This document shows, in pieces, positions 1,104-23,230 of a DNA stretch of 23,230 nucleotides. Origin of the DNA: Bdellovibrionia bacterium (GTDB lineage: Bacteria; Bdellovibrionota; UBA1018); contig JBJMMA010000035.1 of the NCBI GenBank assembly GCA_045805065.1, positions 1-23,230 of the forward strand, given 5' to 3'. Below the pieces are notes generated by a model. It was not told the origin of the DNA, ran no database searches, and was given only the letters and a program-made list of their open reading frames with translations. The translations under genes were made by a program, and so were the position numbers. How positions within the stretch are numbered: position 1 is the stretch's first letter; every line of letters begins with the position of its first letter.

Positions 1104-4100
1104 TTACCAGCCGCGGAAGAAAAACGGCGGAGCGAGTGCCGAGACAGTAAAGGCATTGGAGCACGCAGTGGTGAGTCCACCCGAGCTTGCCTTGAAGTAG
1201 TAGCTTGGGATTGAGCCCGTGTTGGCGAGCGAGTACTTGATACCTGTGAATGTCGAGAGTCCGCTGGATGGCGTCGCCGATCCGTTGGTGAGCGTTCCGC
1301 CTGCGACGGGCGTGGCGCAGGTATTGTCGCTGTACACATCTACTGCGATGGCAGTGGCGTATGTGGTGTCGGTGCTTCCTTCGGCGTCTTGTGCAGCAAC
1401 TTTTGGAACGGTGGCAAAGACGCTGTTTACGTAGTTGCTCGTTGAAGGATGTACAGTGAAAGCAAGTTGGCTTGCTGGACCAGGTGACAACGTGATTGAA
1501 GTCGAGCAAACGCTCGTGAGCGATCCGGATGTTGCTTTCAAGTAAATCGGATTTCCGCTGTTGCGCTTGTTGAGCGATACGGCGGTAAAGGCAGCTTCTC
1601 CGTATGCGATTGTTTTAGGAGAGTCGGCAACCGTTGCGCCCGTCAGTGAAGTCGCGCAAGTATTATCCGTATAAGCTGCGAGCGTGACCGAGGTAGAGCC
1701 AGTATAATTGACGTCAGGCCAATTGTTGTGGGTGCTGCTCACCGGCATGACATCAGGTTGCTGTGCGAGAGCAACACCAACTCGTCCTGTAGGAGCGGGT
1801 TGAGTGTAGAAAAGTAATTTGTCAGCAGGGTAGAGGCCTGCGATTGTTCCCTGCGATCCTGTCGCATAGCCAGTGCCTCCAGCGACAGAGTAAGCTCCTG
1901 TAAATGAGTTGGTAGTAAAATAGAGTGCGATTCTTCCGCCGCCACCACCACCGCCTCTTCCAGTGGCTACCGCCGCATCGCCGCCTTTTGCTTGAATGTT
2001 GCCGGTGCCGGCCAAGACTCCGGTCTGTACCCAAATGCTTCCTCCGGAGCCGCCGCCACCGCTGTAAGTAGTGCCTGAGCCGTATACGGAGGAGATGCCT
2101 CCATTTGCGCTGAGCGTGCCGTTGACGGTGAGGCTGCTGCTGATAACCAGCTTGATTGCGCCGCCTCCACTTCCGCCCTTGGCTGGGAAAGAGCTATTTG
2201 TGTTCCCGCCTCCTGAACCTAAACTCACTGGCTGAGTGGGGGACCCGTACGCGGGTCCACCTGCAGCAACGTTGCTGCTTCCATTTGCGCCAGTGCCGCC
2301 ATATCCACCGCCGCCGCCTCCGTTCGTTGAGCCCGCTGCTCCTTTCCCAGTTCCTGTGTCTGATGCGGATCCCATCGCGTCAGCAGTAAAATAAGAGGCG
2401 CTATCAATGGTCAGGTTGCTTGCAGCTAACGTGGCGGACGTTCCGGTTGCTAGTGATGGAAATCCATAATGACAGCCGTTAGTCACGGAGACATCGTGAA
2501 TCGCCGCTGCATAACCAGGAAGTGCGTCTGCAGGATTAAAGTAAGTCGTGATTGGGAATGGGCAACTTAAATCACCCGTCGCTGAGTTTTGATAAAAGAG
2601 GGATCCATTGCTTGAGCCTGTGAGCACAACGCTGCCCGAGAAGGTACTGCTGCTCGAATAATAAAGTGCAATGTATCCACCGAGTGAGCTTGTAGCCATA
2701 GCAGAGATTGTCCCTGATCCGGCAAGTGATGAAGTCTGCAGCCAAATACTTCCCGCATTTTTTCCAGCCACAGTACCGTTAGCGCTGAGGGTCCCGTCAA
2801 CCGTTGTCGTGCCAGAAACGATGAGCTTGATCGCGCCACCTCCACCACCGCTGGCTCCTTGAAGGGTAGGTTGTGTAGTGGAGGCTGTTCCTGTGCCTGC
2901 GCCAATTCCATTGGCGTTCATAGAAGATCCTGAAGCAATAGTCAGATTGCCTGTGATGCTCATCGTGCCGTTCTGAACGACGTAACTACATCCATTGGAA
3001 ATACTCACGTCATGGATAGTTGTAGCTGGAGGACTGCTTGGATCGTAATAAGTTGTTATGGCCGAATTGCAGACGACGTCGCCTGTACCCGAGTTCTGCA
3101 CAAAATAGGTTCCGTTTGAACCTGTCGCACCGCCTGCGCCGCCGGTAATAGTTGTGGTTCCCGTAAAAGTTAAAGCGGTACCGTAATAGATCGCAATTCT
3201 GCCGCCACCGCCACCACCGCCTCGTCCAGCGGCTACTGCCGCATCGCCGCCTTTGACTGAGATCGTGCCCGTCCCAGCAAGTGTTCCCACTTGCAGCCAA
3301 ATGCTTCCTCCAGAACCGCCACCACCGCTATAGGTTGAAGTCACGCTGCTGGTGCCACCAGTGGCGCTCAGAGTTCCGTTCACAGTCAGCGTGCCGCTGA
3401 CCGCAAGCTTAATTGCTCCGCCTCCGCTCCCGCCTGTGGAGATACTGCTATTTGCTTCTCCGCCATACGAACCCAGACTGACGGGTTGAGTGGCTGAGCC
3501 ATAGGTGATTCCGCCAGTGCCGCCCCCGGTCCCTGATCCCTTGGCACCTGCGCCTCCGTATCCAGCACCACCTCCACCCCATCCTGAACTACCAGATCCC
3601 CCGGCGCCACTGCCGGCAGTGCCGTAGGCTCCTCCCTTGGAGTCAGCGGAAAAGTAAGAGGTGCTATCAATCGTCATATCGCCCAGGGCGGTAAGCGTGG
3701 CGGAGGTTCCAGTTGCCTGATTTTTAAATCCGTAGCGACAACCGTTAGTGATCAAGACATTATTAATTGCTGCTGCGTATCCGGGCAGGGAGTCTGCAGG
3801 ATTGAAGTATGTCGTGATCGAAAATGGGCAGCTAAGATCGCCCGTTGTGGAATTTTGATAAAAGAAAGATCCATAAAGGGAACTCGGAGAGCCTGCAACG
3901 TTGATGGTTCCTGAGAAGCTGCTGCTGGTGGAGTAGTAAATGGCGATATATCCACCCAAAGCGGTTGCTCCTGCGACGGTAGCAGAGATGGTTCCAGCTC
4001 CGGCAAGAGTTGCGGTCTGGAGCCAGATGCTTCCGGCGTATTTTCCAGCAACAGTCCCATTGGCGCTCAATGTGCCATCAATAGTGGTTGTCCCAGCAAC

Positions 4101-5738
4101 AATGAGCTTGATCGCTCCTCCGCCTCCGCCTGCGGCACCTTGATAAGTCGGCTGAGTGGTAGAAGCGGTTCCGGCTCCAGTTCCGAGGCCATTTGCATGA
4201 ATGGAAGAGCCAGATCCAATCGTCACATCACCCACAGCGGTGAGAGTGCTGTTTACGATCGCAAAACTGCAGCCGCCAGAAACGCTGAGGTTGTTAATAG
4301 GCGTAGAGGGAGGGCTTGCAGATTCGTAAGCCATATTGATTGCTGATGAGCAAGTAACATCTCCAGATGTTGAGTTCTGGAGAAAGTAAGTGCCTGCTCC
4401 TCCGGTACTGGAGGCGTATCCACTTCCTCCCGCAGCTGAGACAGTCCCTGTAAAGCTATTGGCAGAGCTATAATAAATGGCAATTCTTCCGCCACCGCCC
4501 CCACCGCCTTGGGTAGAGGTTGAAGGTGCGGTGCCGCCCTTTGCTGTAATGCTTCCGGTACCCGCCAGTGTTCCAACTTGCAGCCAGAGGCTTCCACCGG
4601 CGCCGCCCCCACCGCTCGCGCTGGAGGTTATTGTTGTGTCGTTCCCGTTAGCACTCAGGGCTCCATTGACCGTTAATGTTCCACTGACAATCAGCTTGAT
4701 CGCTCCACCTCCGGCGCCACCTGCAGATCCAGAAGAGGTCGCCGATCCGCCGCCTGAGCCAAGCAGAGTCGGTTGAAGGCCAGAGTCGTATGTAGTGGTG
4801 CCTCCGGCGGTAGCATTGTAACCGTTAGTACCGACACCTCCATGGGCACCGCCACCTCCGGAATAAAGGTAGTTGGCTCCAGCTCCAGGTCCGGAAGCTG
4901 CTGGATAGCCTCTCCCATCAGCCGAAAAATAGGACCCGCTGTTGATCGTCATGGTAGGAACCGTCAGCGATGCTGAGGCTCCTGTAGCCTGATATTTGAA
5001 TCCATAGCGACAGCCATTCGTCACTGTCAGGCTAGCGATGGCAGCTGCATAACCCGGAAGTGCATCATTTGGATCAAACATGACAGTCGTGTTGAAAGGA
5101 CAGCTCAGGTCGCCGGTCGTGGAGTTTTCGTAAAAAAGATAAGCGGTTGAAATGGTTCCACTGAACGTGCTGCCACTCGAATAATAAATGGCGATGTAAC
5201 CACCCGCCGAAAAGGTAGCCACCGTGGACATCGTTCCTGCGCCTGCCAGGGTAGCAGTCTGAAGCCAGATACTTCCACCTGCAGCACCAAAGGCCGCGCC
5301 ATTAGCGCTCAATGTTCCCGCCACTGTTGTCGTGCCGGCCACGATGAGTTTGATCGCTCCGCCCCCGCCGCTTGGCTGATAAGTAGGTTGAGTGGTCGAT
5401 GCTGTTCCAGTTCCGTTACCTAGCGTGTCGGACTTGAACGTTGTGCCTGTATTTATGGTGAGGTCTCCAGCGATAGTGATCGTAAGGCCTGTTCCCGTTA
5501 CGATGCCTGTGGATTGAATGGTCAAGCTGTTGAAACTGTATGCGCCAGCGCCAAGAGTGAGAATCGCACCTGAGACGACCACGTCGGCGCCTGAGTTTGC
5601 GCCCGCGGCCCAAGTCGTATTGCTGCTGACAGTAACGGTTGCTGCGGACGCAGAGGAGGGGAGGACCGCTCCTGCGAGCGCCAAGCAGAGACTACTGAAA
5701 ACCCAGATGGGTTTTAAATGCGTCGTAAAACGAGTCAA
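1104..5738 (-). CDS. Large secreted glycine-rich repeat surface protein / putative adhesin (1544 aa) with two C-terminal Ig-like domains
   Basis: TTG start with GAGGGG RBS 5 nt upstream; Sec signal ending ASA-A; six repeats of GGAIKL...LSA(N/T)G...GS(I/L)W(L/V)Q...IA(I/L)Y(Y/F); two C-terminal units starting ADKLLFYTQP and ASQLAFTVHP. Confidence 0.9.
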   Translation of the reverse strand: MTRFTTHLKPIWVFSSLCLALAGAVLPSSASAATVTVSSNTTWAAGANSGADVVVSGAILTLGAGAYSFNSLTIQSTGIVTGTGLTITIAGDLTINTGTTFKSDTLGNGTGTASTTQPTYQPSGGGGAIKLIVAGTTTVAGTLSANGAAFGAAGGSIWLQTATLAGAGTMSTVATFSAGGYIAIYYSSGSTFSGTISTAYLFYENSTTGDLSCPFNTTVMFDPNDALPGYAAAIASLTVTNGCRYGFKYQATGASASLTVPTMTINSGSYFSADGRGYPAASGPGAGANYLYSGGGGAHGGVGTNGYNATAGGTTTYDSGLQPTLLGSGGGSATSSGSAGGAGGGAIKLIVSGTLTVNGALSANGNDTTITSSASGGGGAGGSLWLQVGTLAGTGSITAKGGTAPSTSTQGGGGGGGRIAIYYSSANSFTGTVSAAGGSGYASSTGGAGTYFLQNSTSGDVTCSSAINMAYESASPPSTPINNLSVSGGCSFAIVNSTLTAVGDVTIGSGSSIHANGLGTGAGTASTTQPTYQGAAGGGGGAIKLIVAGTTTIDGTLSANGTVAGKYAGSIWLQTATLAGAGTISATVAGATALGGYIAIYYSTSSSFSGTINVAGSPSSLYGSFFYQNSTTGDLSCPFSITTYFNPADSLPGYAAAINNVLITNGCRYGFKNQATGTSATLTALGDMTIDSTSYFSADSKGGAYGTAGSGAGGSGSSGWGGGGAGYGGAGAKGSGTGGGTGGITYGSATQPVSLGSYGGEANSSISTGGSGGGAIKLAVSGTLTVNGTLSATGGTSSVTSTYSGGGGSGGSIWLQVGTLAGTGTISVKGGDAAVAAGRGGGGGGGRIAIYYGTALTFTGTTTITGGAGGATGSNGTYFVQNSGTGDVVCNSAITTYYDPSSPPATTIHDVSISNGCSYVVQNGTMSITGNLTIASGSSMNANGIGAGTGTASTTQPTLQGASGGGGGAIKLIVSGTTTVDGTLSANGTVAGKNAGSIWLQTSSLAGSGTISAMATSSLGGYIALYYSSSSTFSGSVVLTGSSNGSLFYQNSATGDLSCPFPITTYFNPADALPGYAAAIHDVSVTNGCHYGFPSLATGTSATLAASNLTIDSASYFTADAMGSASDTGTGKGAAGSTNGGGGGGYGGTGANGSSNVAAGGPAYGSPTQPVSLGSGGGNTNSSFPAKGGSGGGAIKLVISSSLTVNGTLSANGGISSVYGSGTTYSGGGGSGGSIWVQTGVLAGTGNIQAKGGDAAVATGRGGGGGGGRIALYFTTNSFTGAYSVAGGTGYATGSQGTIAGLYPADKLLFYTQPAPTGRVGVALAQQPDVMPVSSTHNNWPDVNYTGSTSVTLAAYTDNTCATSLTGATVADSPKTIAYGEAAFTAVSLNKRNSGNPIYLKATSGSLTSVCSTSITLSPGPASQLAFTVHPSTSNYVNSVFATVPKVAAQDAEGSTDTTYATAIAVDVYSDNTCATPVAGGTLTNGSATPSSGLSTFTGIKYSLANTGSIPSYYFKASSGGLTTACSNAFTVSALAPPFFFRGW
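1850..5460 (-). repeat. Intragenic tandem triplication of a ~420-aa (~1.25 kb) super-repeat, each made of two sub-repeats
   Basis: GTASTTQPT(Y/L)Q recurs near 5375-5415, 4141-4185 and 2860-2900; GDLSCPF and NGC(R/H)YGF each occur three times. Boundaries are approximate. Confidence 0.85.
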
Positions 5739-5881: not shown

Positions 5882-8800
5882 CTATTTATGACTTGCGGGC
5901 TTGCGATCCGCTGGCTGAGCCTTTGCGCCAGACGCAACAGCTTTGGAAGCTGGAGCGTTTGCCGGAGCATTGGCTGGAGCAGGCGGAGCCGGTGGAATGA
6001 AGGCTGCGTAAATCGCCTTGGCTCTCGCGGCAGCGTACGAGTCTTCGTAGTACTTGGCAAGAGTGAGCGCGACGACTGGCTCAAGCTTGGCGTCGACAAT
6101 CTTGCGAGTCTCTTCGAGCTCAACGAGTGCTTCGCCACGCGCGCCTGCCGATGCCATGGAGACAGCGCGGATCAGGCCCATTTCAGAATCCGTAAAAAGC
6201 TTCCGGTCTTTTGCTTCCTGGAGGAAGAATGCGACCTGCACCCAGTTACGGTTTTTGAGAGACTGCGTCCAAGCCGTGAGAATCATTTGAGCTGCGCTAT
6301 CGTCTGCGGGTTTTCTTCCTGCGGCTTTTTCCTTCGCAGCCCAAGCATCATAAGAAGCCTCATGAGCCTGGTGAATGTAAGGCAGATAATCCATTCCAAG
6401 GCCGATGACTTTGAGACCCTTAGGAATCACGATGCCCGCATGGGATTCTTCAGCCAGGGACTTGAGCTTCTTGGCTTGAGATGGATTCTCAGCAAAGAAT
6501 GGCTCGGTGATTGCGTTGAAGGCGTCGCCTTCGATCGCAAAGCGTGAGGCCATATCAAATGCCTTGGTGCGAATGTCGTTGGCTTTCTCTTCGAATGGAA
6601 GCGTGAGCTTGCGGATCGTGTCCTGATAAGCAGTCACTTCAGCATCGCTCAAGCCCTTTGGAGCCGGGAGATCGCCGAGACCCTTGGCAAGATCCTGATA
6701 CACGGATGCCAATTGATTGAGCGTCTCTGCGCGGACGCGAGCCCATGGAAGATCCATGATCTTGGCGACTGCGTTTTCAAGTTCGCGGATCGAGTCCACA
6801 CGATGCGTGATGTATTTCTCGTTTGCTCTCAGTGGAGCCACGTCTTTCATCGCAGCGCGATTGAGTGCGAATGCATTTGGAATGCTGGTGTTGATGTAAG
6901 GCAGAACAAAGAACTTCGCCAATGCATCGAGATCTTTCCAGCCGGCACCCACTGCTCTGAGAAGGTGGTTTCGATCGCGGAAGGCGAGATGCTTTGCACC
7001 TTGAAGAGTGTAGATTGCCCAAAGCGCTTTTGCTTCGCCCGAATCCATCTTGTGAACGCGGTTGAAGGTTGCAATCGTCTTGTCCTCATCTGGAGGATTG
7101 GTAGCGCTTTGCTGAATCGCGTTGATCGCATGATATTTCTCACACTCATCCGAGAGCTTATCCGTGCAGATGGACTTGGCCTGAAGAAGAGACTTCAATG
7201 CCGCGCCATCAGCGGAGAGCCAGGAGAGGGCAAGGGTTTTCTTTCTCAGGTCATCGACTTTCGATGCGTCAGGCTTTTGCTTGGCGTCTTTGAGCGCGCC
7301 GCTCTGATAGAGGTTGATGTAAGCCGTATAGTCGGTGACTGCGCCTCCGAACTCAAACTTCTCTTCTTGCAAGCTAGCACGAGCCAAGAGAGCGTTCGAG
7401 ACACGGGTCGGGTCCTTGTCTGATTGAATGAGCTGAGTGAAGTAGCCCATCGCGCGAGGCTTCTCGTTATTTGCCAAGGCTGCAGAACCCGCAAGGCTCA
7501 AGCAGTCTGGGATACGAGCACTATCCTTATAGTCCTTGATGAATTCATCGGCTTGCTCAAGCGCATCTTTGTAAAGCTTGGCTTGGTATTTGAGCTCGAT
7601 CTTCTTGTAAAGAGCATCGGCTGCGACTTCATAGAGACGCTTTCCGAACTCGCCCTTCTTCCAGGTATCCAGTCTGTGGAAGGCGGTGGCGCGCTCATAA
7701 GTCGCGTCCCAATCGCTTCCGGTAATGAATGTGTCGAGCACAAGGCTTGCGGATGGAATCCCGTAAGTGGAGTGAGGGCGCTTCTTGGCAAACTCCTCGA
7801 GTCTTTCAACTGCGTGGCGTTGGTCGCCCGAGACGTAAATGGCGCGGTTGGCTTCGAAGTTGAAGTTATCCCACGTCTTGTATTGCTCGCTCTCAGCTTC
7901 GCCCTTTTTGAGCTTCTTATGTTCAGAGGCAAGCTGATCTCCCAATTGGTCGATCCACTCAATCCAGGTCGTCAGCACAGGATCAAGCTGTCCGTGCTTG
8001 GAGTTATCCTTGGACAAGGCAACCGCTTTGACTTCGGTTGGGATCATCTTCTTTTGGCGTAATACTTCGTAACGCGCGGCGATTGCTTTGATGTGAGAGT
8101 CCGCTACGCCTTTGGCAACCGTTTTGTTGATCGATTTCCAATGATCGACAATCCACCGATAGTGGGTGGTGGCGCCTTCAAAGTTTTCGATCGTAAAGAG
8201 AGTTTCGGCCAAGTTGTAGTGGACTTGCGGAATGCGTGGATCGCTCTCGACAACCACTTGCGTGAAAGTGTCGTAAAGGGAAGCAAGCGTCAAGCTGAGC
8301 TCGCGCGCTTTCTCGGTCTGCTTGTTCTTGACGATCACAGCTTGAAGGTTTTCAGCGGTATCGAGGATCATCTTCTGAGCCTTTGGCAATTGCTCATGCT
8401 TCAGGAGAGCTTCGCGGCCGACCTTCTTATAAAGAGTGAGAAGATCCTTCGCGGTATCGACGAGCGCGGTGAAATTGCGTTGGTTCTGAAGATATTCGTA
8501 AGTGATGATGATCAAGTCGAGCGATTCTGGACGGGTCGCCTCTTCGTTCAGGAACTGGTTCTTCCAGGCGACGAGCTCCTTCTCCATGTTTCTGGAGCGA
8601 ATCAGCTTTGCAAAACGATAGGACATTTTGCCAAGAAGCGGACCCTTCTCGATCTTGCGGAAGTAATCCAGTGCTGCGCTGGCTTTGTAGCGATCATCCT
8701 TTTCTTCAACGCCTTGAAAATAGAAAAGCGGGATATCGAGCAAAGTGTTTTCTTTGAGTGCAAAGTCAGAGTTTGCGAGATTGTCGCTGACCTTCTCTTT

Positions 8801-9556
8801 TCCAGCATCTGGAAACTTGACGTTGTAGTACGCGATTTGTTTTTCAGCGTAAGACAAGGCGTGCGCGATGTCCTTCAGGTTGTAGTAGGACCAGGCAAGT
8901 TTATAGAGAGCAAAAGGGTAGTGGGCGTCTTCAGGACGCTTCTCAAGCTCTTTTAAGTAGGTGATCGCAAGCGGATGATTGTTGGCTTCGATCGCAAACT
9001 CGGCAAGCGACATATAGGCTGGCGAGGTTTGCTCCGCTTCGGGGTAGTTCTTTACCAGATAAAGATAATCTTTGGTTGCAGCGGTCTTGTTCTCCATCTC
9101 CTCGTACGACTTTCCGCGCATGAAGTAAGCGGTAGCGATATCCGCGTAGTTTGGATAACGGCCGATCAGGAGATTCAGAGTGGAAATGGTTTGATGCAGT
9201 GATTTGTTGTAAGCGGTAAGATCAAGCTTTCCGCCTTTCTTGCTTGCGGCGCCATGGGCAACGCGAAACAAGATGGATGCTTTTTGCTGTTGAAGCTCGG
9301 CGAGCTTGGAGAGAAGAATTGGCTCCTGGCGTGGATTGCCAGTGTACTTCTTGAGAAGAAGAATGAGGCGATTCAGGGAGCTGTCTTGAGCGGCGAGCGC
9401 GGCCTGGTCGACGTCGCGGTCATGTTGCTCGCGTGCTGCTCCTGCAGGTCCTACTGCGCGAACCTGTACGCCCTCGTCGGCTTGAGTTGACGTGTTCTGT
9501 GTGAGTAGAAATGCTAAGTTGAGGATGAACGCGCCGGCGACGAGGTTCCGTTTCAT
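5882..9556 (-). CDS. Secreted/periplasmic tetratricopeptide-repeat protein, AgmU/GltD-like (1224 aa)
   Basis: Sec signal (MKRN...TQA-D); TPR-like helices (YFMRGKSYEEMENKTAATKDYLYLVKNYP, ALYKLAWSYYNL, HYNLAETLFTIENFEGATTHY); C-terminal LPAPKGLSDAEVTAYQDTIRKLTLPFEEKA resembles the AgmU/GltD C-terminus; directly downstream of the motor genes. Confidence 0.8.
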   Translation of the reverse strand: MKRNLVAGAFILNLAFLLTQNTSTQADEGVQVRAVGPAGAAREQHDRDVDQAALAAQDSSLNRLILLLKKYTGNPRQEPILLSKLAELQQQKASILFRVAHGAASKKGGKLDLTAYNKSLHQTISTLNLLIGRYPNYADIATAYFMRGKSYEEMENKTAATKDYLYLVKNYPEAEQTSPAYMSLAEFAIEANNHPLAITYLKELEKRPEDAHYPFALYKLAWSYYNLKDIAHALSYAEKQIAYYNVKFPDAGKEKVSDNLANSDFALKENTLLDIPLFYFQGVEEKDDRYKASAALDYFRKIEKGPLLGKMSYRFAKLIRSRNMEKELVAWKNQFLNEEATRPESLDLIIITYEYLQNQRNFTALVDTAKDLLTLYKKVGREALLKHEQLPKAQKMILDTAENLQAVIVKNKQTEKARELSLTLASLYDTFTQVVVESDPRIPQVHYNLAETLFTIENFEGATTHYRWIVDHWKSINKTVAKGVADSHIKAIAARYEVLRQKKMIPTEVKAVALSKDNSKHGQLDPVLTTWIEWIDQLGDQLASEHKKLKKGEAESEQYKTWDNFNFEANRAIYVSGDQRHAVERLEEFAKKRPHSTYGIPSASLVLDTFITGSDWDATYERATAFHRLDTWKKGEFGKRLYEVAADALYKKIELKYQAKLYKDALEQADEFIKDYKDSARIPDCLSLAGSAALANNEKPRAMGYFTQLIQSDKDPTRVSNALLARASLQEEKFEFGGAVTDYTAYINLYQSGALKDAKQKPDASKVDDLRKKTLALSWLSADGAALKSLLQAKSICTDKLSDECEKYHAINAIQQSATNPPDEDKTIATFNRVHKMDSGEAKALWAIYTLQGAKHLAFRDRNHLLRAVGAGWKDLDALAKFFVLPYINTSIPNAFALNRAAMKDVAPLRANEKYITHRVDSIRELENAVAKIMDLPWARVRAETLNQLASVYQDLAKGLGDLPAPKGLSDAEVTAYQDTIRKLTLPFEEKANDIRTKAFDMASRFAIEGDAFNAITEPFFAENPSQAKKLKSLAEESHAGIVIPKGLKVIGLGMDYLPYIHQAHEASYDAWAAKEKAAGRKPADDSAAQMILTAWTQSLKNRNWVQVAFFLQEAKDRKLFTDSEMGLIRAVSMASAGARGEALVELEETRKIVDAKLEPVVALTLAKYYEDSYAAARAKAIYAAFIPPAPPAPANAPANAPASKAVASGAKAQPADRKPASHK

Positions 9557-9562: not shown

Positions 9563-10072
9563 TCATTCCCCTTTGACTACCGCTAACTTAAAGTCCGTGT
9601 AGCCATTGAGGGCAGCTGAAGCGAGAACGGATTTGATCGTGGAATAGGGAACACGTTGGTCAGCAACGATGATGATCTTGCTATCCACTTTCACGTCCGA
9701 GTTTGCTTTCGCAATCAGAAGACCCTTCTGGCGCTCACGATCCAACGCTTTGCTCAGCGTGTCCGAAGCGCCATTGGCCTGGAGGTCAGACTTATTGAAA
9801 GCGTACTTTTGCAGCTCAACAATCGGCTTGCCTTCGAGACTCACAGCCTGCTCAGAGACTTCGAGTTTCAAGGCTTCAACCGAGGCTTCCGCGGCATTGG
9901 CTTGCGGTAAGAGCATGCCTTTGGAAGGATTGACCTCGATTGCGCTGGTTGCGAAGCTCTTCAACAAAAACACGAGAAGAACAGTGAAAATATCGGCCAT
10001 TGCAGTAATCTGCAGCGCCATCTCTTCACTCTGAACTCTGCGTTTTTTGAATAGCTTACTTTTGCTTTTCAT
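9563..10072 (-). CDS. ExbD/TolR family protein, AglS-like
   Basis: TM segment LQITAMADIFTVLLVFLLKSF with conserved Asp; C-terminal IIIVADQRVPYSTIKSVLASAALNGYTDFKLAV. ATG at 10072 (GGAG 5 nt upstream) preferred over the ORF-track TTG at 10093. Confidence 0.88.
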   Translation of the reverse strand: MKSKSKLFKKRRVQSEEMALQITAMADIFTVLLVFLLKSFATSAIEVNPSKGMLLPQANAAEASVEALKLEVSEQAVSLEGKPIVELQKYAFNKSDLQANGASDTLSKALDRERQKGLLIAKANSDVKVDSKIIIVADQRVPYSTIKSVLASAALNGYTDFKLAVVKGE

Positions 10073-10132
10073 GACGACTCCATGACTCCCCAAACCGGCA
10101 CAGACTAGTTGGGCCGGTCTGGGTTATTGTTC

Positions 10133-14331: not shown

Positions 14332-14356
14332 AGCTGGAGTAGGAGGAACGGCTAAT

Positions 14357-14733: not shown

Positions 14734-14943
14734 ATGACTGAATTGGCGAAAAAATTTGTTCGCGATGAATCAGGACAAGCCATCACGGAGTACATCCTGA
14801 TCATGTCGCTCGCGCTCGGGGGCGCAGTCGCTATCAGCAAAGGTCTGATGGGCGTGCTGGATAAATTCACTCTCGCCTTCGGTGCTCAGCTTGAAAAAGA
14901 TCTGAAAGCGGGGAGGGCGCCTAGCAGTGTCTGGACCAACTGA
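14734..14943 (+). CDS. flp: Second Flp family pilin
   Basis: 69 aa; FVRDESG|QAITEYILIMSLALGGAV. Confidence 0.88.
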   Translation: MTELAKKFVRDESGQAITEYILIMSLALGGAVAISKGLMGVLDKFTLAFGAQLEKDLKAGRAPSSVWTN

Positions 14944-15475
14944 CACCACTCTTCTGATCTATGCTATTCTCGCAATCTCCGTTTGCGGCGCGCTCACGGA
15001 TCTTGTTTGCGGGAAGATCTTCAATTGGCTGACGCTTCCCGCGCTGGTGCTGGGACTTGCGGCCTCAACCTGGTTGAATGGCTGGACAGGACTTTCGACA
15101 GCTGTGCTGGGAACTCTGGCTGGCTTAATTCTTTACGGCTGGATGTTTGTCCTGGGCGCGATGGGTGCAGGCGATGTGAAATTCATCATGGCGCTTGGTG
15201 CCTGGGGTGGAGTTCGTTTCGCAGTTCAGACCGCACTTCTGGGTGTTCTGGTGGGCGGTCTTTTGGCCGTTCTTATGCTGGTTTTCAGCGGAAAAATGCC
15301 TGGTTTCTTAAAACGCGTGCACCGCTTTTTCCTGACCCTGTTTGTTCGCGAGCTCGAGATCGAAATGCCTAAAATCAATCACGCGATGACGATGCCATTC
15401 GGGATCCCGATTGCGATCGCAGCGGCCTGGGTTGCATTAGGGGATCCATTTTCTTTCCTGGGAGTGACGTTATGA
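14927..15475 (+). CDS. cpaA: Prepilin peptidase, A24 family (CpaA/TadV)
   Basis: Multi-TM; ALTDL (Asp1), KIFNWLT, MGAGDVKFIMALGAW (Asp2), C-terminal MPFGIPIA; GTG start overlapping the flp stop region. Confidence 0.92.
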   Translation: MSGPTDTTLLIYAILAISVCGALTDLVCGKIFNWLTLPALVLGLAASTWLNGWTGLSTAVLGTLAGLILYGWMFVLGAMGAGDVKFIMALGAWGGVRFAVQTALLGVLVGGLLAVLMLVFSGKMPGFLKRVHRFFLTLFVRELEIEMPKINHAMTMPFGIPIAIAAAWVALGDPFSFLGVTL

Positions 15476-15753
15476 GAAAACTCCCTCCTTCTCCAATCGC
15501 TTCTGAGGAAGGCCAGGCTATTCTTGAGTACATCCTTCTAATCTCAATCGTGGGCTTGCTCTTTGTCGGTCTGATGAACGGTCTCGGAAAGATTGATGTC
15601 ATCAAAAGGCTGATGAAGCCGCTCAATGGCGACTACGCCCACGCTTATCAATACGGACATCCCAAAGCATTGGGCTTTGATGATGGAGGGCCACAGAAAC
15701 ATCCGCGCGCCATTGGCGGGGATAGCTTCAGGATTTTTTATGCTAGGCCATGA
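15472..15753 (+). CDS. Flp/TadE-like minor pilin
   Basis: SEEG|QAILEYILLISIVGLLFV prepilin motif with a ~55-aa C-terminal extension; ATGA overlap with the peptidase gene. Confidence 0.82.
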   Translation: MRKLPPSPIASEEGQAILEYILLISIVGLLFVGLMNGLGKIDVIKRLMKPLNGDYAHAYQYGHPKALGFDDGGPQKHPRAIGGDSFRIFYARP

Positions 15754-16294
15754 TAGAAAATCAGAGAGCGGGCAATCCACCGTAGAGTTCGCGCTGACGA
15801 TGATTCTGGTCTCATCGTTCATGTTTCTTTTCTTCCAGCTCTCCATGGTTATGGGAATGAGCTCGTATATCCAATACGCCACTTTTATGGCGGCACGTGC
15901 TTATCTATCCGCCGGCCCGGATGTTCAGGATCAGCAGACTCGCGCAAGGACGGTCATTCAGCAAATGCTCAAAGCGCCCGGAAACTCAGCGAAAGATCGC
16001 CTTCCCACCATCGTCAAAGGGGATGGGGGGTCTGATGGGACAGTCCCGGGTCTGAGTTTTGACGCCGCTCAGTTTGATCCCAAGAGCCGAAATTACAGTT
16101 GGCTGCAGGGAATCCGATATAGCTTCAAGGGGCGTGTGTTTTTAATGCCCATTGGGACCGGCGGGGCCACCAAGCCTGGGGCCGCAACGGTGTCCCTGAC
16201 GTCTGAAAGCTTTTTAGGAAGAGAGGCAACCACTGAGGAATGCCGCTCTGACATGAAGAATAGAGGAGATGGGATTTACGATAATGGCTGCTGA
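15740..16294 (+). CDS. tadE: TadE-like pseudopilin
   Basis: KSESG|QSTVEFALTMILV followed by YATFMAARAY (TadE-type AAR motif). ATG at 15740 with AGGA RBS preferred over the ORF-track start at 15626. Confidence 0.85.
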   Translation: MLGHDRKSESGQSTVEFALTMILVSSFMFLFFQLSMVMGMSSYIQYATFMAARAYLSAGPDVQDQQTRARTVIQQMLKAPGNSAKDRLPTIVKGDGGSDGTVPGLSFDAAQFDPKSRNYSWLQGIRYSFKGRVFLMPIGTGGATKPGAATVSLTSESFLGREATTEECRSDMKNRGDGIYDNGC

Positions 16295-16862
16295 CAAGAC
16301 ACTGCAAAACAAAGAAACGATATTAGACGATGACTCCGGTCAGAGCGTGCTTGAGTTTCTTTTGGTTTTGCCGGTCTTGATGACCATCGTGATGCTCATT
16401 ATCCGGGTTAATACGGCGATCCAGATGTCCATCGTCGATCAAAAGTATGCCCGCGCCCAGACTCTTTTTATTACTGGAAACGCGGCAGAGTATCCTCTTC
16501 GCGCAGCGGTTGTGAGCGATCTTGCTCAAAGCGGGATGAACCAGCTTGTGGTTGGTGTCTCTGAAGATCCTCCCCGCGATCCGAACGGTGGCGAAGGTGA
16601 TCAGAAAGTTTCGGCAAGTACCTACTACATCGGGCGCAGGCCGGGTGGCATGAGCGAGAACTCGGATTCGGGCGATGACATCAGCAAGCGCGTGACAATT
16701 CGCGTGCGCAATACGGTGACTCTCTGCCTGCCGATGATCAATCTCGATGGAAAGCCTGCATTTGATTTCAACGTCGGGGGCGGCGGAAGCCCGAAATACA
16801 ACTACAAAGAAGACCCAAGAAGTTGGCAATTCTGTAGCTCAAAACTGGAGCAGCGCGGATGA
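16284..16862 (+). CDS. TadE/TadF-like pseudopilin
   Basis: DDSG|QSVLEFLLVLPVLMTIV...QKYARAQ; C-terminal Cys pair; start at 16284 or 16269. Confidence 0.82.
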   Translation: MAADKTLQNKETILDDDSGQSVLEFLLVLPVLMTIVMLIIRVNTAIQMSIVDQKYARAQTLFITGNAAEYPLRAAVVSDLAQSGMNQLVVGVSEDPPRDPNGGEGDQKVSASTYYIGRRPGGMSENSDSGDDISKRVTIRVRNTVTLCLPMINLDGKPAFDFNVGGGGSPKYNYKEDPRSWQFCSSKLEQRG

Positions 16863-17704
16863 ACAATAAAGCCCTGACTCTTTCCATATTAATGGCGATC
16901 CTGGCCGTGTTCTTCGTTCAAAGCTACGTTCAGAGCGTTGAAGAAGAGCAAAAGAAGAAGTTTGGCTCTGAGATCACCGTGGTTGTCGCCAAGCGCGACA
17001 TCAAGGAAATGGCAACGATTGATGAAACGATGCTGACGACGCTTCAGATTCCGGAGCGTTTCAAGGATCCGAACGCCGTTGCTTACAGCAAGCCTGAAGT
17101 CGATGAGAAGAGCGGCCGCAAGATCGGCATGGGACTGAAGGAATGGGCGGGCTTTATCGCCAGTGTTCCGATCAAAAAAGGCGAGCAGCTCACTTACACC
17201 AAGATCACCGAGCCTAGCATCAGAACGGGCCTTTCCCCACAGGTCGCACCAGGCAAGCGCGCCATCGCGATCAACGTGAGCGAAGTCTCAAGTGTTTCCA
17301 AGCTTGTTAAGCCCGGCGATCGCGTGGATATCATCGCCGTGATCGATCTTGGGGGCGGTAAAGCCAATAAGATCGCAAAGACTCTTCTTCAAGATGTCGT
17401 GGTCCTGGCAACGGGCCGTAACGTCACAAACAATCCAGCGCGCATGATCGAGAACGACTCCATTACCGGTAAAGACAAGGTGAAGTCTTTGGCCGAGGAT
17501 TTCTCCTTCAGCAGCGTGACCGTCGAAGTGGATCCTGTTCAGGCTCAAATGCTTGCGCTGGTCATGCAGAACGGCGAGAGCTCCTTGCTGCTTTCACTGC
17601 GAAACAATGAAGACACCGAGCGTGGCGCCATTGGAGCAATGTCGTATAGCGATGTGCTGGGAATTGATCTGAATAGGGCGAGGGCGCCTGCGGGCAAACA
17701 ATGA
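16859..17704 (+). CDS. cpaB: Flp pilus assembly protein CpaB/RcpC
   Basis: N-terminal TM; SAF-like VVVAKRDI...PIKKGEQL; PGKRAIAINV, LVKPGDRVDII, TLLQDVVVLATG, VTVEVDPVQAQMLAL, LSLRNNED. Confidence 0.93.
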   Translation: MNNKALTLSILMAILAVFFVQSYVQSVEEEQKKKFGSEITVVVAKRDIKEMATIDETMLTTLQIPERFKDPNAVAYSKPEVDEKSGRKIGMGLKEWAGFIASVPIKKGEQLTYTKITEPSIRTGLSPQVAPGKRAIAINVSEVSSVSKLVKPGDRVDIIAVIDLGGGKANKIAKTLLQDVVVLATGRNVTNNPARMIENDSITGKDKVKSLAEDFSFSSVTVEVDPVQAQMLALVMQNGESSLLLSLRNNEDTERGAIGAMSYSDVLGIDLNRARAPAGKQ

Positions 17705-19482
17705 AAACCTCTAAACGGCCAACATCTTTGATTTCGCAATCCACGGCTTGGACCCTGCTCATGTCACTCTTAGCAGGGACGGTGACGTTTGGCCTGCCTC
17801 ACGCCGCTCTCAGCGCGGAAAATGATTCCAAGGCCAAGCCAAGCGCCGAAGCATCAGACTCCTCAGGAGCCTCTGAGTCGGATGATGCGAGCAACGATGC
17901 CAGCGATGATGCCAAGCCCGAGGATCTCAATCACGAGAAGATCACCCTGCGTGGAAAGAAGAAAAATCCCAAGCGCTCGCGCCTGACCTCGGATACTTCC
18001 GAGGAAGAGGCCGATCGTCGCCGCTTGCTTTTGACGACGGGCGAAGACAAGACCGTTGATCTTGATTTTGATGCCAATACTCGTGCTGAGGGCATCACGG
18101 TGGGTAACCCGCTCCTGGTGGCAACAACCCTGGTGAAGGTCGGAGATAAGCGCCAGATCGTCTTCAAGCCTCTGAAAGCAGGCGAGACGAACGTGATTGT
18201 GCGCGATGCCGATGGCAATATCCGGCTCATCTTCATGGTCCGCATCACGGGAAGCAATCTGCTTCGCATTGCGGGCGAGATCCGTGACCTTCTTCGTGAC
18301 GTCGAAGGCATTGATATCCGGATTGTCGGCCCGAAGATCATTCTGGAAGGCGAAGTCCTGGTTCCTGCCGACTATGGTCGCGTTGCCATGATCGTAGCCG
18401 ATGCCGCATACAATGGATTCGTGATGAACCTGACGACCTTGTCGCCTCTGGGCATGCAGGTTCTCGCTAAGAAGATCGAATCGGACATCAAAAATTTCGC
18501 GCCAAACGTCACGACACGTGTGGTGAACGGCGTGATCTTTCTCGAAGGCTCCGTCAAGAATGTGGATGAGGCAAAGCGCGCGAACGATATCGCGCTCATT
18601 TATCTGCCTGATGTGAAGCCTACGACGCTGATCGAGCGCGATGACAAGACTTCCGTGAAATCCCAGATTCCACGCAAGCTGCTTCAGAACTTCATTCAGA
18701 TCGAGCCGCCTCCACCCAAGAAGCAGGAGAAGCTGGTTCGCGTGACGGTTCACTTTGTCGAACTCTCCAAGGACTACAGCAAATTCTTCGGATTCAAATG
18801 GGAGCCAGGTTTCACCTCAGAGCCTACGATCGCAATCGGCCAGGGCACGAGTGGAGCAACTCAGGCTGGCGGAATGTCGTTCAGCGCGACGATCTCAAGT
18901 TTGCTTCCTAAGCTCAAGAGCGCACAGGACGCAGGATATGCTCGCGTTCTGAAAACCGGAACCGTGATTGTGAGAAGCGGTCAGCCAGCAAAGCTCGATG
19001 AGCTGACCCAGTTCCCATATGTCGTCTCTGGCCCGAATGGTCAGACAACGCCTGCCGCGCAGCCTGTCGGGCTCTCGGTTGGCGTGACGCCATTGATCTT
19101 GGGTCAGAGCGAAGACATTCAGATGGATCTCAATATGAATCAGATCGATCTGGTCTCGCTTCCAAGCAACGGGGGACCTCCGATCACTTCCACTCACAAG
19201 GTGGAGACGAAGATTTACGTCAAATCCAAGGAAAGTGCTGCAGTCGCAGGCGTGAACTCCACGGATGTCGGAACGTCCTTCAATAAGGATGATCCGAATC
19301 CAGGAACCTTCAGCGGTGGCTCAGGCGGCGCACAGACGGATGCGATGTTCACTTTGAAGCACACCAAGAACTACTCCAAGAAGAAATCGCAGTTTGTGAT
19401 CTTCGTTACGCCGGAGATCATCGACAATGCTTCCGAAGGCAGCGAGGACTTGAAACGCAACTTCCGGGTGAAGGTAAAATAA
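17701..19482 (+). CDS. cpaC: Tad secretin CpaC/RcpA with N-terminal pilus-formation and BON-like domains
   Basis: Signal peptide; ITVGNPL...KAGETNVIV N-domain; IILEGEV and IFLEGSV BON-like segments; VRVTVHFVELSK, IVRSGQPAKL, GLSVGVTP, KSQFVIFVTPEII secretin motifs. Confidence 0.9.
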   Translation: MKTSKRPTSLISQSTAWTLLMSLLAGTVTFGLPHAALSAENDSKAKPSAEASDSSGASESDDASNDASDDAKPEDLNHEKITLRGKKKNPKRSRLTSDTSEEEADRRRLLLTTGEDKTVDLDFDANTRAEGITVGNPLLVATTLVKVGDKRQIVFKPLKAGETNVIVRDADGNIRLIFMVRITGSNLLRIAGEIRDLLRDVEGIDIRIVGPKIILEGEVLVPADYGRVAMIVADAAYNGFVMNLTTLSPLGMQVLAKKIESDIKNFAPNVTTRVVNGVIFLEGSVKNVDEAKRANDIALIYLPDVKPTTLIERDDKTSVKSQIPRKLLQNFIQIEPPPPKKQEKLVRVTVHFVELSKDYSKFFGFKWEPGFTSEPTIAIGQGTSGATQAGGMSFSATISSLLPKLKSAQDAGYARVLKTGTVIVRSGQPAKLDELTQFPYVVSGPNGQTTPAAQPVGLSVGVTPLILGQSEDIQMDLNMNQIDLVSLPSNGGPPITSTHKVETKIYVKSKESAAVAGVNSTDVGTSFNKDDPNPGTFSGGSGGAQTDAMFTLKHTKNYSKKKSQFVIFVTPEIIDNASEGSEDLKRNFRVKVK

Positions 19483-19484: not shown

Positions 19485-21737
19485 ATGGCTGGTCATATCA
19501 TCGCAGTTGTTGGCGGAAAAGGCGGGGTAGGAAAGAGCGTGTTCGCAGCGAACTTCGCGATTTCCTATTTGCAGGAGTTCAAGCAACGTCCCCTGATCGT
19601 GGATCTGGACCTCAACAGTCTGGGAGACCAGAACCTGATCCTTGGCCTGAATCCTCCTAAAAACATTGTCGATGTGAGCAAGATCCCAGGTGGCGTCATT
19701 GATATCAAGACGCTGCAGCCGATGATGGTCACGGCTCCTGCTGGATACAACTTCATTGGTGCGCCACGTGAGTCAATCATTGCACGTGATTTGGATCTTG
19801 ACGGCTTAGGAAAGTTTCTCAAAGGCGTCACGAATATCTTCAATCTTGTTGTCGTCGATTGCGGTAACGGGACTGAGCCTTGGGCGTTGAAGACGATGGA
19901 GTACGCGACCGCGATTTTTGTTGTCGCAACTGCTGACCTTATCGTCATCAATCAGACCAAGCGCGTTCTGTCCAAGATCCAGGAACTCATGTTCCCGCCG
20001 GAGATGGTGCAAATCATCATCAATCGCTACTCGAACGCGAGCTTGTTCAAGCCACAGGATATCAGCAAGAACCTGAATCGCGCCGTTTTCGGAGCGATCC
20101 CGGAAGATGCGGCAACCTGCGATGGATCTCTGGCAAAGAGCACGCCCATCACGCTCGCTGCGCCTAACGCGCCGGTAGTTCGCGCTTATCACGACATCGT
20201 TCGCAAGATGCAGCAGGTGAACCTGCTTGAGAACCTGGCAAAACTTAAAAAGCCAACTGGCGTGGTTGCCAAGGCTCAAGCGGCAAACAATCCTGAGACT
20301 TCAGCCGACACTGCCAACGCACCCGGAGGCAGAAGTTTCGCTGCGCCTCTGGATGCCTGGACTGCGATGAAGCTTCGCATTCACAAGGCTCTCGTCGATC
20401 AGCTCGACAAGAAGATGGACGTCAATTCCAAGGATCCTAAGCAGCTTGCTGTTCTTCGTGAGCGCACGTCATCTGCTGTCTTGAAGATCATGGAGACCGA
20501 GGACACCGCATCAGTTCTTCCGAGCGCGAATGAGAAGCGTCAGATGCTCAAGGAAGTCCTGGATGAGGCGCTGGGCCTGGGACCGCTGGAAGACCTGCTT
20601 GCGGACGATTCCGTGACCGAAATCATGGTCAATGCGCGCGACCAGATCTACATCGAAAAAGCGGGTAAGCCGCAGCTCTCGAAAGTGAACTTCTCAAGCG
20701 AGCTTCAGATGATGAACGTGGTTGAGCGTATCGTCACGCCGCTGGGTCGTCGTGTGGACGAAAAAACCCCCTACGTCGATGCCCGTCTTGCTGACGGATC
20801 TCGCGTGCACGTGATCATTCCGCCGCTTGCCTTGCGCGGACCCACGATCACGATTCGTAAATTCCCCAAGAAGCGCATCGAAGCGGAAGATCTTGTTAAG
20901 TACGGATCCATGACGCCGGATATCGCGGATTTTCTGCGGTGTTGTGTTGAGGCAAAACTCAATATCGTCGTCTCAGGCGGTACGGGTTCCGGTAAAACGA
21001 CGCTTCTGAACGTGCTCTCAGGTTTCATTCCTGCGACCGAGCGTATTATCACGGTGGAAGACGCCGCCGAAATTCAGCTCAAGCAGGCTCACGTCGTCAG
21101 GCTTGAGGCTCGCCCCAAGAACATTGAAGGTGAGGGCGAGGTCAGCATCCGCGATCTCGTGAAGTGCTGTCTTCGTATGCGCCCTGACCGTATTGTCGTC
21201 GGTGAGTGTCGCGACGGAGCGGCTCTCGACATGCTTCAAGCGATGAACACCGGTCACTCGGGCTCGCTCACGACGGTTCACTCGAACAATCCGCGTGAGT
21301 GCCTGGGCCGTCTTGAAACGCTGGTCATGATGGCAGGACTGAATCTGCCTTCCAAGGCGATCAAAGAGAACATCGCGTCCGCTGTTAATCTGATCATCCA
21401 GCAGACGCGTCTCACCGACGGATCCAGAAAGATCACCTACATCACCGAGGTCACGGGAATGCAGGGCGATGTTATCTCGCTTCAGGACATCTTCGTCTAC
21501 AAGCAAGAAGGCCTGGACAAGAAGAGAAACGTCATCGGAAAATTCGTACCTCTGGGATTTGTTCCCAAGTTCGTTGAGGAGATGGAAGCCAAGGGCATGC
21601 GCGTTTCGCGCAATCTCTTTGACCCCAACAAGAACGCAAAACCTACGGGAGGTGGTGCTGCGCCAGCTGTAGCACCAGCTGCAGCACCGGCAGCTCCTGC
21701 AGCTGCGGCGGCAGGAGGGGCGAAGCCGAAAGGCTGA
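19485..21737 (+). CDS. tadA: Fused ParA/MinD-like (CpaE/TadZ) and CpaF/TadA pilus assembly ATPase
   Basis: N-terminal [31 protein letters not shown] (ParA/MinD); C-terminal [56 protein letters not shown] (CpaF); single 750-aa ORF. Confidence 0.93.
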
Positions 21738-21750: not shown

Positions 21751-22614
21751 ATGCCTTTATGGATTGGCCTGCTCATCCTGGGGATTGCCGTTTTCGGAGT
21801 CTCCTACCATTACTCAAAGCGCTTCCTGGACTGGTTGCGCTTTCAGTCATTGGGCACTCGCGATTATATCGTTGAGCGGCTTCAGATGATGTTCATCGAT
21901 ATTCCTGCGCATAAGATCCTGATGGGACTTTTTGGGATGAGCTTTGGCCTCGGGAGCATCGTGTTTCTGGCTTTTCTTCCTCATCTTCTTCCAGGCTTCA
22001 TCTTCGGCACGGTGGCGACCGTGATCGGCTGGAAGGCGCCCAAGCCTCTGGTGGATTGGTATTATAGAAGGCGCGTGAAGAAGTTCGTCGTTCAGATGAT
22101 CGATGCGCTGGCTCTCATGTCCAACGGCATGAAGTCAGGTCTGTCGGTTGTCCAGGCACTCGGAATGGTCTCTGAAGAGATGCCCAATCCGATCAAGCAG
22201 GAGTTCAACGAGGTTCTTCGCCAGAACAAGATCGGTGTTCCGCTGGAGGAAGCTTTCACGAGTCTTGGCAATCGCATCAAATCCGATGACGTCGAGATGT
22301 TTGTCACCTCCGTCAATATTTTGAAAGAGACAGGCGGTAATCTCGCGGAAACCTTTGATACGATCGTCACAACGATTCGCGAGCGAATCAAAATCGAGAG
22401 TAAAATCGAGGCCATGACGACGATTGGCTTCTATCAAGGTATCTTCGTCATGGCGATCCCGCCAGTGCTGGGAACCGTGTTTTACACAAGCGATCCCGAG
22501 TTTATGCAACCATTGTTTACCACTGCGATCGGATGGGTGATCGTGGCAGCGATATTCTTGCTTGAAGCCATCGGATTTTTTGTCATCATGAAAGTTATCA
22601 AAATTGACGTCTAG
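21751..22614 (+). CDS. tadB: TadB inner-membrane platform protein (T2SS F family)
   Basis: QMIDALALMSNGMKSGLSVVQAL, PIKQEF, ETGGNLAETFDTIVTTIRER, two C-terminal TMs ending IKIDV. Confidence 0.92.
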   Translation: MPLWIGLLILGIAVFGVSYHYSKRFLDWLRFQSLGTRDYIVERLQMMFIDIPAHKILMGLFGMSFGLGSIVFLAFLPHLLPGFIFGTVATVIGWKAPKPLVDWYYRRRVKKFVVQMIDALALMSNGMKSGLSVVQALGMVSEEMPNPIKQEFNEVLRQNKIGVPLEEAFTSLGNRIKSDDVEMFVTSVNILKETGGNLAETFDTIVTTIRERIKIESKIEAMTTIGFYQGIFVMAIPPVLGTVFYTSDPEFMQPLFTTAIGWVIVAAIFLLEAIGFFVIMKVIKIDV

Positions 22615-22651: not shown

Positions 22652-23230
22652 ATGAGAAAAATCAACGCCATTTTAATGACAGCCGCGATGTTCGCGGTAT
22701 CCATCGCGCAAGCTCAAGTGAGCCTTCGCAACGGGAATTTCTTCACCGCTTATACCGATCTGGTCTATCCGGGTGGATTTGATCCGAAGGTTGAGCGCAT
22801 TTACAACTCCAAGACCGATTGGGCAAAAGGCATCTTTGGTCCAGGCTGGGGTTTTGAATACGAAGCTTATTTGAAAGTCTCGGCAGACGGCAGCGTCGTC
22901 GTGCACGAGTACGGTGGCGGAGCCGAAAACCGCTTCAGCCCGGTCGCATTCAATGCAGGCGAGCTGGATAAGGCCGTGGATATGATCGCAGGCGCTGCAA
23001 AAGCCTCTGGCGTGATTGGAAGCGCTGCTCAGCTGGAAACCTACAAGAAGAGACTTCGCTCGGACATCAATTACAGAAACGAGCAGTGGGAAGAGTTCCG
23101 TCACCAGGGCAAGCTTCAGCCTCGTCAGCTTGCGGTGGGAACCAAGCTTCAATCCAACCATTACAGCTATCAGTTCATCACGAAGGTTGAAGGCGGATAC
23201 CTTCGGAACTACGAGACGGGCAAGACCGAA
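22652..23230 (+). CDS. Secreted DUF6531/RHS(YD)-type protein, Bd0109-like, truncated at window end (absent from the ORF track)
   Basis: ATG at 22652 after GAGGG; frame open to the end (193 codons): MRKINAILMTAAMFAVSIAQA|QVSLRNGNFFTAYTDLVYPGGFDPKVERIYNSKTDWAKGIFGPGWGFEYEAYL, matching the RHS N-terminal pattern V...NGN...DL...R.YNS....G.FG.GW. Confidence 0.85.
   Translation, partial: MRKINAILMTAAMFAVSIAQAQVSLRNGNFFTAYTDLVYPGGFDPKVERIYNSKTDWAKGIFGPGWGFEYEAYLKVSADGSVVVHEYGGGAENRFSPVAFNAGELDKAVDMIAGAAKASGVIGSAAQLETYKKRLRSDINYRNEQWEEFRHQGKLQPRQLAVGTKLQSNHYSYQFITKVEGGYLRNYETGKTE

Follow-up and report, generated by a model that had tools for sequence, protein, structure and literature searches.

Tight adherence (Tad) loci, which encode Flp pili, are syntenic in all examined Bdellovibrio and like organisms (BALOs); their flp genes are required for predation, and bd0109-bd0119 form an attack-phase operon (PMC5430801; PMC3526173). 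The hit locus comprises wapA (Bd0109), tadB (Bd0110), tadA (Bd0111) and a secretin gene (Bd0112) (PMC2277423), and Bacteriovorax and Halobacteriovorax carry TadV together with three TAD-associated flp genes (PMC5430801). The Bdellovibrio TAD system is treated as a homologue of the Tad-like Kil system of Myxococcus, of which FHA-rich accessory genes are a hallmark (PMC8460266). A second kind of envelope system is the Agl-Glt gliding machinery, whose core complex consists of GltD, E, G and C together with AglR, Q and S (Luciano et al., PMC3169522). B. bacteriovorus possesses four agl/tonB-like operons, 'expanded core complex' sets related to Myxococcus Agl-Glt, with Bd1473-1483 among them (PMC2797640). 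This operon includes aglR (Bd1481) and the gene for Bd1483, a gliding-cluster protein that is a lipobox lipoprotein with a metal ion-dependent adhesion site (MIDAS) (PMC2277423; PMC11003981). We analysed a 23,230-nucleotide contig (JBJMMA010000035.1 of assembly GCA_045805065.1, Bdellovibrionia bacterium; hereafter the window) in which counterparts of both systems stand back to back. Open reading frame (ORF) calling and domain scans revealed a plus-strand Tad/Flp operon, running from 14357 to the contig end, that diverges from a minus-strand Agl-like motor operon across a 198-bp spacer.

We interpret the window as two separate envelope systems of known kinds, placed head to head by one rearrangement, and assign this reading a probability of roughly 80%. 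Each module matches a system published for Bdellovibrio, the Tad operon that of the TAD/hit locus and the motor operon that of Bd1473-1483 (agl), and their pairing looks ordinary; a single co-regulated machine is not supported. The assembly is a Bacteriovoracaceae-type genome of 4.22 Mb in 262 contigs (94% complete), referred to below as G000, with the window as its entire contig C35; other genomes, contigs and loci are labelled G, C and L, respectively.

We extracted Tad loci from 80 other genomes, 40 order-level relatives and 40 from across the phylum, and scored them with the window's proteins; a locus counted as informative (n = 66) if 3 kb or more preceded its first detectable tad gene. 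Agl-like genes lay upstream of Tad in two of these 66 loci, those of G001 (same genus) and G170 (another genus), and both carry the same junction as the window: the 351-aa first gene of the motor operon, the spacer and flp1. A 585-nt contig from a sequencing run of another study also bridges positions 14113-14693, with 42 differences (~93% identity). In a phylogeny of concatenated CpaB, CpaC, TadZ-TadA and TadB sequences (31 rows), the window, G001 and G170 formed one clade (Shimodaira-Hasegawa-like approximate likelihood ratio test, 99), whose sister, G004, has no such adjacency. Because the carriers form a single clade, one rearrangement suffices, and the phylogeny points to a single origin of the adjacency in the ancestor of the two genera. 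If a member were cultured, this clade would offer a natural rearrangement for testing co-regulation.

The converse survey, performed with a profile of the MIDAS lipoprotein encoded by the motor operon, covered 35 loci from genomes that partly overlap those of the Tad survey. Tad genes were present at only one of the 35, on the contig of G001. The Tad and Agl-like blocks of G006 lie 164 kb apart on one contig, and in G166, a complete genome from another class, the Agl-like cluster (1.39-1.41 Mb) and the Tad genes (~0.09-0.10 Mb) are separated by 1.3 Mb.

The Tad operon usually diverges from another block, which encodes a TadC-like T2SSF protein, a DUF192 protein, three FHA proteins (one with a PAS and two with TPR domains) and a PP2C-like protein. 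This block was divergent from Tad in 32 of 35 informative loci of the order and class (e.g., G006, L008:11579-18715). That a BALO Tad operon normally stands back to back with a TadC/FHA/PP2C-like block is a useful, ordinary result in its own right, and the window's clade departs from it in having the Agl-like operon as divergent neighbour. The only T2SSF gene in the window is tadB; a second, at C226:15689-16600, is 68% identical to the TadC-like gene of G006, and the TadC/FHA block of G000 as a whole (C226:15689-22977) lies away from its Tad operon. The block probably represents that half of the BALO Tad system which provides regulation and the platform, and it recalls the FHA-rich Kil clusters. 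Since the rearrangement parted the Tad operon from this block, it is hard to reconcile with selection for a Tad-centred island.

Scanning of the spacer identified a sigma-70-like site directed toward flp1 (TTGACT-17-GATACT, 14276-14304) and none on the minus strand of the same 198 bp; all repeats in the spacer were short and imperfect (17 nt at 76%, 19 nt at 74%). By-eye reading upstream of flp1 and flp2 gave spacings unfit for a sigma-54-type -24/-12 element. G001 shares the promoter-like element of flp1, and G004 has it in an almost identical sequence. Its presence in the adjacency-free G004 indicates that it predates the junction and that the Tad operon kept its own promoter.

The far end of the motor operon carries a giant Gly-rich gene (1544 aa), which was found at the operon site in G000 only and was missing there in every relative examined. 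Between the large TPR gene and the ~90-aa gene that follows it in relatives lies a variable insertion site (window 5738-5882; L004, L005, L125) whose cargo differs by genus: the 1544-aa gene in G000, several small genes in G001, a 370-aa ORF in G004 and an HTH/DUF4423 gene in G170. Judged by these comparisons, the 1544-aa gene is a lineage-specific insert rather than a conserved part of the operon. Against the AgmC model NF047640 the protein scored 40.9 bits (cut-off 275), with a partial, weak AgmC_N-like region.

An earlier note on this DNA, made from the sequence, had taken the physical linkage and similar promoter motifs as signs of one co-regulated machine and had counted the Gly-rich protein as a second adhesin of the island. 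The spacer, with its one site facing flp1, does not bear out the shared motifs, and the Gly-rich protein drops out as an island component. The linkage itself extends to two of 66 loci beside the window, all in one shallow clade; the adjacency is thus not unique to this genome, occurring also in G001 and G170, but as the property of one clade it does not give the synteny support in substance.

Several points nevertheless weigh against regarding the two blocks as separate, well-identified systems. Divergent operons with a common 198-bp spacer can be co-regulated, and the adjacency, which persists in two genera and an environmental relative of ~93% identity, is no one-off. The label Agl-Glt-type draws on within-phylum paralogy, gene order and the published Bdellovibrio trees rather than on a comparison with Myxococcus AglR or GltD, and the link between C35 and C168, the contig bearing further genes of the operon, is taken from the synteny of relatives and is not an assembled one. 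Prey invasion by Myxococcus involves cooperation between gliding and the Kil Tad system (PMC8460266). The counterparts of both operons in B. bacteriovorus are reported to fall in expression between attack phase and the 30-min point of predation (PMC2797640); given this parallel fall, similar timing is possible even without linkage.

Such points leave some room for a clade-restricted, co-regulated predation island, in which a proton-motive-force motor positions or loads the MIDAS adhesin (here also the Gly-rich protein) at the Tad pilus. The spacer of just 198 bp, the junction kept in G000, G001, G170 and the environmental relative, and the gliding-Kil cooperation of Myxococcus (PMC8460266) would all fit such an island. 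We nonetheless consider it unlikely, because the arrangement occurs in two of 66 informative genomes through one event, an event that also separated Tad from the TadC/FHA block; the flp1 promoter-like site is older than the junction and has no matching element on the other strand; G170 has the adjacency but a block devoid of a MIDAS gene; only in G000 does the Gly-rich protein occupy the site; and Myxococcus killing is independent of motility complexes, which it does not need (PMC8460266). A slightly longer shot is that the 198-bp control region, shared in this clade only, would join adhesion or gliding and pilus-based prey attack in one attack-phase unit, or, separately, that the Cys-rich anchored protein and the enlarged MIDAS lipoprotein would constitute a new adhesin-plus-partner module of Bacteriovoracales.

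The minus-strand operon has the order 351-aa Cys-rich protein, 570-aa MIDAS/VWA lipoprotein, TolQ, ExbD, ExbD, 1224-aa TPR protein and 1544-aa Gly-rich protein, and the order from the 351-aa gene to the TPR gene recurs in most MIDAS-profile loci. TolQ directly followed the MIDAS gene in 26 of the 35; a TolQ-ExbD-ExbD-TPR set lay ~6 kb upstream of it in four, no TolQ was nearby in two, and three loci were cut by contig ends. After the large TPR gene, the operon of relatives continues with the ~90-aa gene, a TonB_C-ended protein of 373-521 aa, a ~257-aa protein, a TPR protein of 620-660 aa and a GYF protein. The G000 counterparts of these downstream genes (TonB-like, second TPR and others) are not in the window; they lie at C168:743-5678.

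The cluster of G166 encodes a 353-aa MIDAS protein, a 206-aa protein, TolQ, two ExbD, a 1246-aa TPR protein, a 488-aa TonB-like protein, a 254-aa protein and a 713-aa TPR protein. We infer from the published description that the window and G166 clusters correspond to Bd1473-1483; the common order, as observed in G166, runs from a MIDAS gene by a TolQ-type gene through two ExbD genes and a ~1200-aa TPR gene to TonB-like, ~255-aa and second TPR genes. The two clusters differ in that the window's operon is headed by a 351-aa Cys-rich gene, while an unrelated gene of 206 aa separates MIDAS from TolQ in G166; the G000 operon is also broken after the large TPR gene. Deletion of bd1483 caused no invasion defect (PMC11003981), and transposon insertions in Bd1481 and Bd1483 lowered biofilm predation (PMC2277423).

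The operon of relatives, with TolQ, two ExbD, TPR proteins and a TonB-like protein, matches the core complex of Luciano et al. (PMC3169522). The same principle may be discerned in the Agl-Glt/CglB system of M. xanthus, where a proton-motive-force motor of TolQ and two TolR-like proteins is combined with a large TPR protein, a TonB-like transducer and, in the outer membrane, a lipoprotein adhesin of integrin-like type with a MIDAS motif (PMC3169522, PMC9946355). Of the M. xanthus Agl-Glt components, neither the beta-barrels GltA/B/H/K nor GltC, F, I or J are seen in the window's operon. In M. xanthus, cglB is not known to be linked to aglRQS.

Five TolQ-family genes were identified in G000: that of the window, two in further TolQ + 2 ExbD sets with fuller clusters (C111 and C232), one in a Tol-Pal set with TolB (C64) and one in an ExbB-ExbD pair (C178). 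The C111 cluster also encodes a 1219-aa TPR protein, an outer-membrane beta-barrel protein and an FHA protein. A phylogeny of 16 TolQ-family proteins from G000, G004, G006, G019, G166 and E. coli K-12 (TolQ, ExbB), with no named Myxococcus AglR among them, contained a 100/100 branch that splits the Tol-Pal/ExbB proteins from all paralogues of the 2-ExbD clusters, including the window's TolQ. By its place in this tree, the window's motor groups with the Agl-like paralogues of the 2-ExbD clusters and apart from Tol-Pal and ExbBD.

The large TPR protein was matched in 38 of 41 genomes (G000 included), and as sole query in a locus search it recovered only a contig of the same genus. Its residues 134-471 are collinear with the 1219-aa TPR protein of C111 (24% identity, E 3e-7). 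A PDB sequence search gave chance-level matches only, and its curated matches comprise YbgF/CpoB-like and BamD-like TPR stretches alone, all below cut-off. These matches, the TonB_C protein in the relatives' operon and the view of Luciano et al. that the core complex alone is unlikely to drive motility (PMC3169522) could be taken to mean that the TolQ, two-ExbD and TPR block energises outer-membrane transport or envelope maintenance in TonB/Tol-like fashion and merely carries a lipoprotein gene. We find this improbable, more so than the predation island, because G000 already has a separate Tol-Pal set (C64) and ExbBD pair (C178), the window's TolQ falls across the 100/100 split from both types, and the block has no linked TonB-dependent receptor, its constant partner being an adhesin-type MIDAS lipoprotein.

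That the junction is a chimera of metagenome assembly, as could be suspected of one contig in a 262-contig assembly, has virtually no chance of being correct and was rejected, as the junction recurs in two other assemblies (G001, G170) and is bridged by the 585-nt contig of another study.

Under the preferred reading of two systems brought together by rearrangement, the plus-strand genes would form a BALO-type, Kil-like Tad/Flp operon whose Flp pilus, by homology, would serve prey attachment and entry, with TadC and the FHA-domain regulators apparently supplied from elsewhere in G000. The motor block would be the 5' half of an operon of Agl-Glt core-complex type, with its TonB-like and second TPR genes on C168. 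Its TolQ + 2 ExbD channel would pass force through the TonB-like protein and the TPR scaffolds to the MIDAS adhesin in the outer membrane, and this coupling would serve gliding or surface adhesion. The giant Gly-rich protein would be a species-specific insertion.

Table 1. Features of the 23,230-nt window, from the Tad/Flp operon through the spacer to the motor operon.
Feature	Position	Strand	Basis
flp1, Flp prepilin (70-aa ORF)	14357..14569	+	Translation; G/QSTTEY processing motif; orthologues head the Tad operons of relatives
flp2, Flp prepilin	14734..14943	+	G/QAITEY
Prepilin peptidase TadV/CpaA (Peptidase_A24)	14927..15475	+	PF01478, E 3.9e-13, 50.2 bits
Third Flp-like/pseudopilin gene (93-aa ORF)	15472..15753	+	G/QAILEY; position kept in relatives
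TadE-like pseudopilin 1	15626..16294	+	PF07811, E 5.7e-06
TadE-like pseudopilin 2	16269..16862	+	PF07811, E 6.9e-04, under curated cut-off; position conserved
CpaB/RcpC	16859..17704	+	TIGR03177, 147.8 bits (cut-off 71); PF16976
CpaC/RcpA secretin	17701..19482	+	PF00263, 56.7 bits; PF13629
Fused TadZ/CpaE (ParA-like)-TadA/CpaF ATPase (750 aa)	19485..21737	+	PF01656, residues 6-212; PF00437, residues 363-643
TadB platform protein (T2SSF)	21751..22614	+	PF00482, 69.9 bits
DUF6531/RHS-repeat protein, last operon gene, truncated by contig end	22604..23230	+	PF20148, E 1.2e-12
Divergent spacer (198 bp)	14159..14356	.	Sigma-70-like site facing flp1
351-aa first gene of Agl-like operon	13103..14158	-	N-terminal anchor, low-complexity linker, Cys-rich C-terminal domain
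MIDAS/VWA outer-membrane lipoprotein (570 aa, Cys-rich insertions)	11347..13059	-	Alignment, structure model, profile match
TolQ/ExbB-type proton channel	10639..11334	-	PF01618 (MotA_ExbB), 90.7 bits; below TolQ and ExbB equivalog cut-offs
ExbD/TolR-type subunit 1	10178..10639	-	PF02472, E 3.1e-13
ExbD/TolR-type subunit 2	9563..10093	-	PF02472, E 6.5e-15
TPR protein with signal peptide (1224 aa)	5882..9556	-	TPR matches; GltD-like by size, position and weak collinear similarity
Secreted Gly/Thr/Ser-rich repeat protein (1544 aa)	1104..5738	-	19% Gly, signal peptide, three long repeats

The individual features are collected in Table 1. They bear out the earlier note's Tad operon from 14357, here read as flp1 through TadB, and, on the other strand, its TolQ with two ExbD, large TPR protein and giant Gly-rich protein; in the TolQ phylogeny the motor groups apart from ordinary Tol/Exb systems, in keeping with the Agl-Glt-like reading of the note. 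Two corrections apply: the final gene of the Tad operon encodes an RHS-repeat protein and not TadC, and the motor operon has a further first gene, the 351-aa one, which had been missed. The VWA lipoprotein has its lipobox, DxSxS motif and integrin-like model, but not a Pfam VWA domain at E<=0.01.

Resemblance of the window to the BALO TAD/hit locus extends to flp genes, TadV, TadE-like proteins, RcpC/CpaB, RcpA/CpaC, TadA and TadB, with a WapA-like RHS gene last. Its three flp genes with TadV match the TAD loci of Bacteriovorax and Halobacteriovorax in the published descriptions, and its DUF6531/RHS gene occupies the position that wapA (Bd0109) has in the hit locus as described. The same Tad gene order was found in all 36 further order-sample loci and in L002, L006, L008 and L010, and it was partly detectable phylum-wide; G166 retains a collinear cpaB-cpaC-tadZA-tadB-DUF6531 stretch. 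The secretin was matched in 41 of 41 genomes, G000 included. Full-length orthologues of the truncated terminal protein have 570-586 aa with DUF6531 and RHS repeats (e.g., L002:3324-5084), and a short protein of this kind after tadB is conserved across the order and weakly detectable in G166 (31% identity).

The three Flp-like proteins carry variants of G/xxxxEY, which we take to be the Flp-type prepilin processing motif. From the position of the motif, the true start of flp1 may lie further inside its 70-aa ORF, and the first TadE-like gene probably starts downstream of 15626, because its ORF overlaps the preceding gene. The PF00437 domain of the TadZ-TadA fusion scored 217.9 bits, and the TadA model TIGR03819 gave 324.9, below its cut-off of 373. 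The fusion was matched in all 151 phylum-sample genomes, and among the matches listed most span query residues ~1-713; on these alignments, fusion seems to be the norm in the phylum. The KilF ATPase of M. xanthus is described as having an N-terminal FHA domain (PMC8460266), in contrast to the ParA-like TadZ fusion of the window's ATPase.

Alignment of 29 orthologues of the MIDAS lipoprotein revealed an invariant lipobox cysteine (Cys34) and invariant DxSxS residues D68, S70 and S72. Its AlphaFold model is confident (predicted local distance difference test, 85.2; predicted template-modelling score, 0.85), and a Foldseek search of the PDB gave 102 matches at E<=0.001, led by integrin beta headpieces and the streptococcal pilus adhesin PitA (probability 1.00). 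The whole-model TM score of the top matches was only 0.25-0.30, owing to the large Cys-rich insertions. A PDB sequence search gave no match at E<=1, and two equivalog models were not reached (Bdellovibrio MIDAS adhesin NF052240, 29.1 bits against a cut-off of 700; CglD NF033765, 22.3 against 400), with only residues 47-134 matching. The family aligned end to end with the 353-aa lipoprotein of G166 (L130:14759-15820; hhalign probability 98.5%, E 1.8e-15). The 570-aa window protein owes its ~215 additional residues to Cys-rich insertions, placed both inside the MIDAS domain and around it; these may form a cap resembling that of Bd0875, which is reported to be unique to that protein.

The 351-aa family combines an anchor or lipobox, a variable low-complexity linker and a ~170-aa four-Cys domain; in a 26-sequence alignment C150, C189, C226 and C236 were invariant, and many orthologues had a lipobox. 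The gene is the usual upstream neighbour of the MIDAS gene (27 of 35 MIDAS loci at E<=1e-6). An operon of Agl-Glt core type is conserved in Bacteriovoracales, with a Cys-rich protein and an enlarged MIDAS lipoprotein encoded at its head. The protein had no Pfam or NCBIfam match; its model is a small beta-sandwich, for which a fold search gave generic beta-sandwich matches only (best Z 5.4), and profile comparison found the family unrelated to the 206-aa gene of G166 (probability 0.2%). A TonB/GltG-like role was ruled out, given that the protein is Cys-rich, has neither a TonB_C nor a Pro-rich region and bears a lipobox in many orthologues. A complex prediction of MIDAS residues 38-570 with residues 140-351 of the 351-aa protein scored 0.00 without control runs and carries no weight either way.

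Some loci vary in the placement of the MIDAS gene. L009 (G019) and L125 (G170) have no MIDAS gene between the 351-aa gene and TolQ, and L082, L084, L085 and L089 instead carry it ~6 kb downstream of the TPR gene. Elsewhere in G000, contig C161 encodes a 427-aa relative of the 1544-aa repeat protein. At the low-numbered end of the contig, convergent with the Gly-rich gene, a plus-strand ORF (150-1094) carries a twin-arginine translocation (TAT) signal and weakly matches an intradiol dioxygenase C-terminal domain (PF00775, 32.3 bits).

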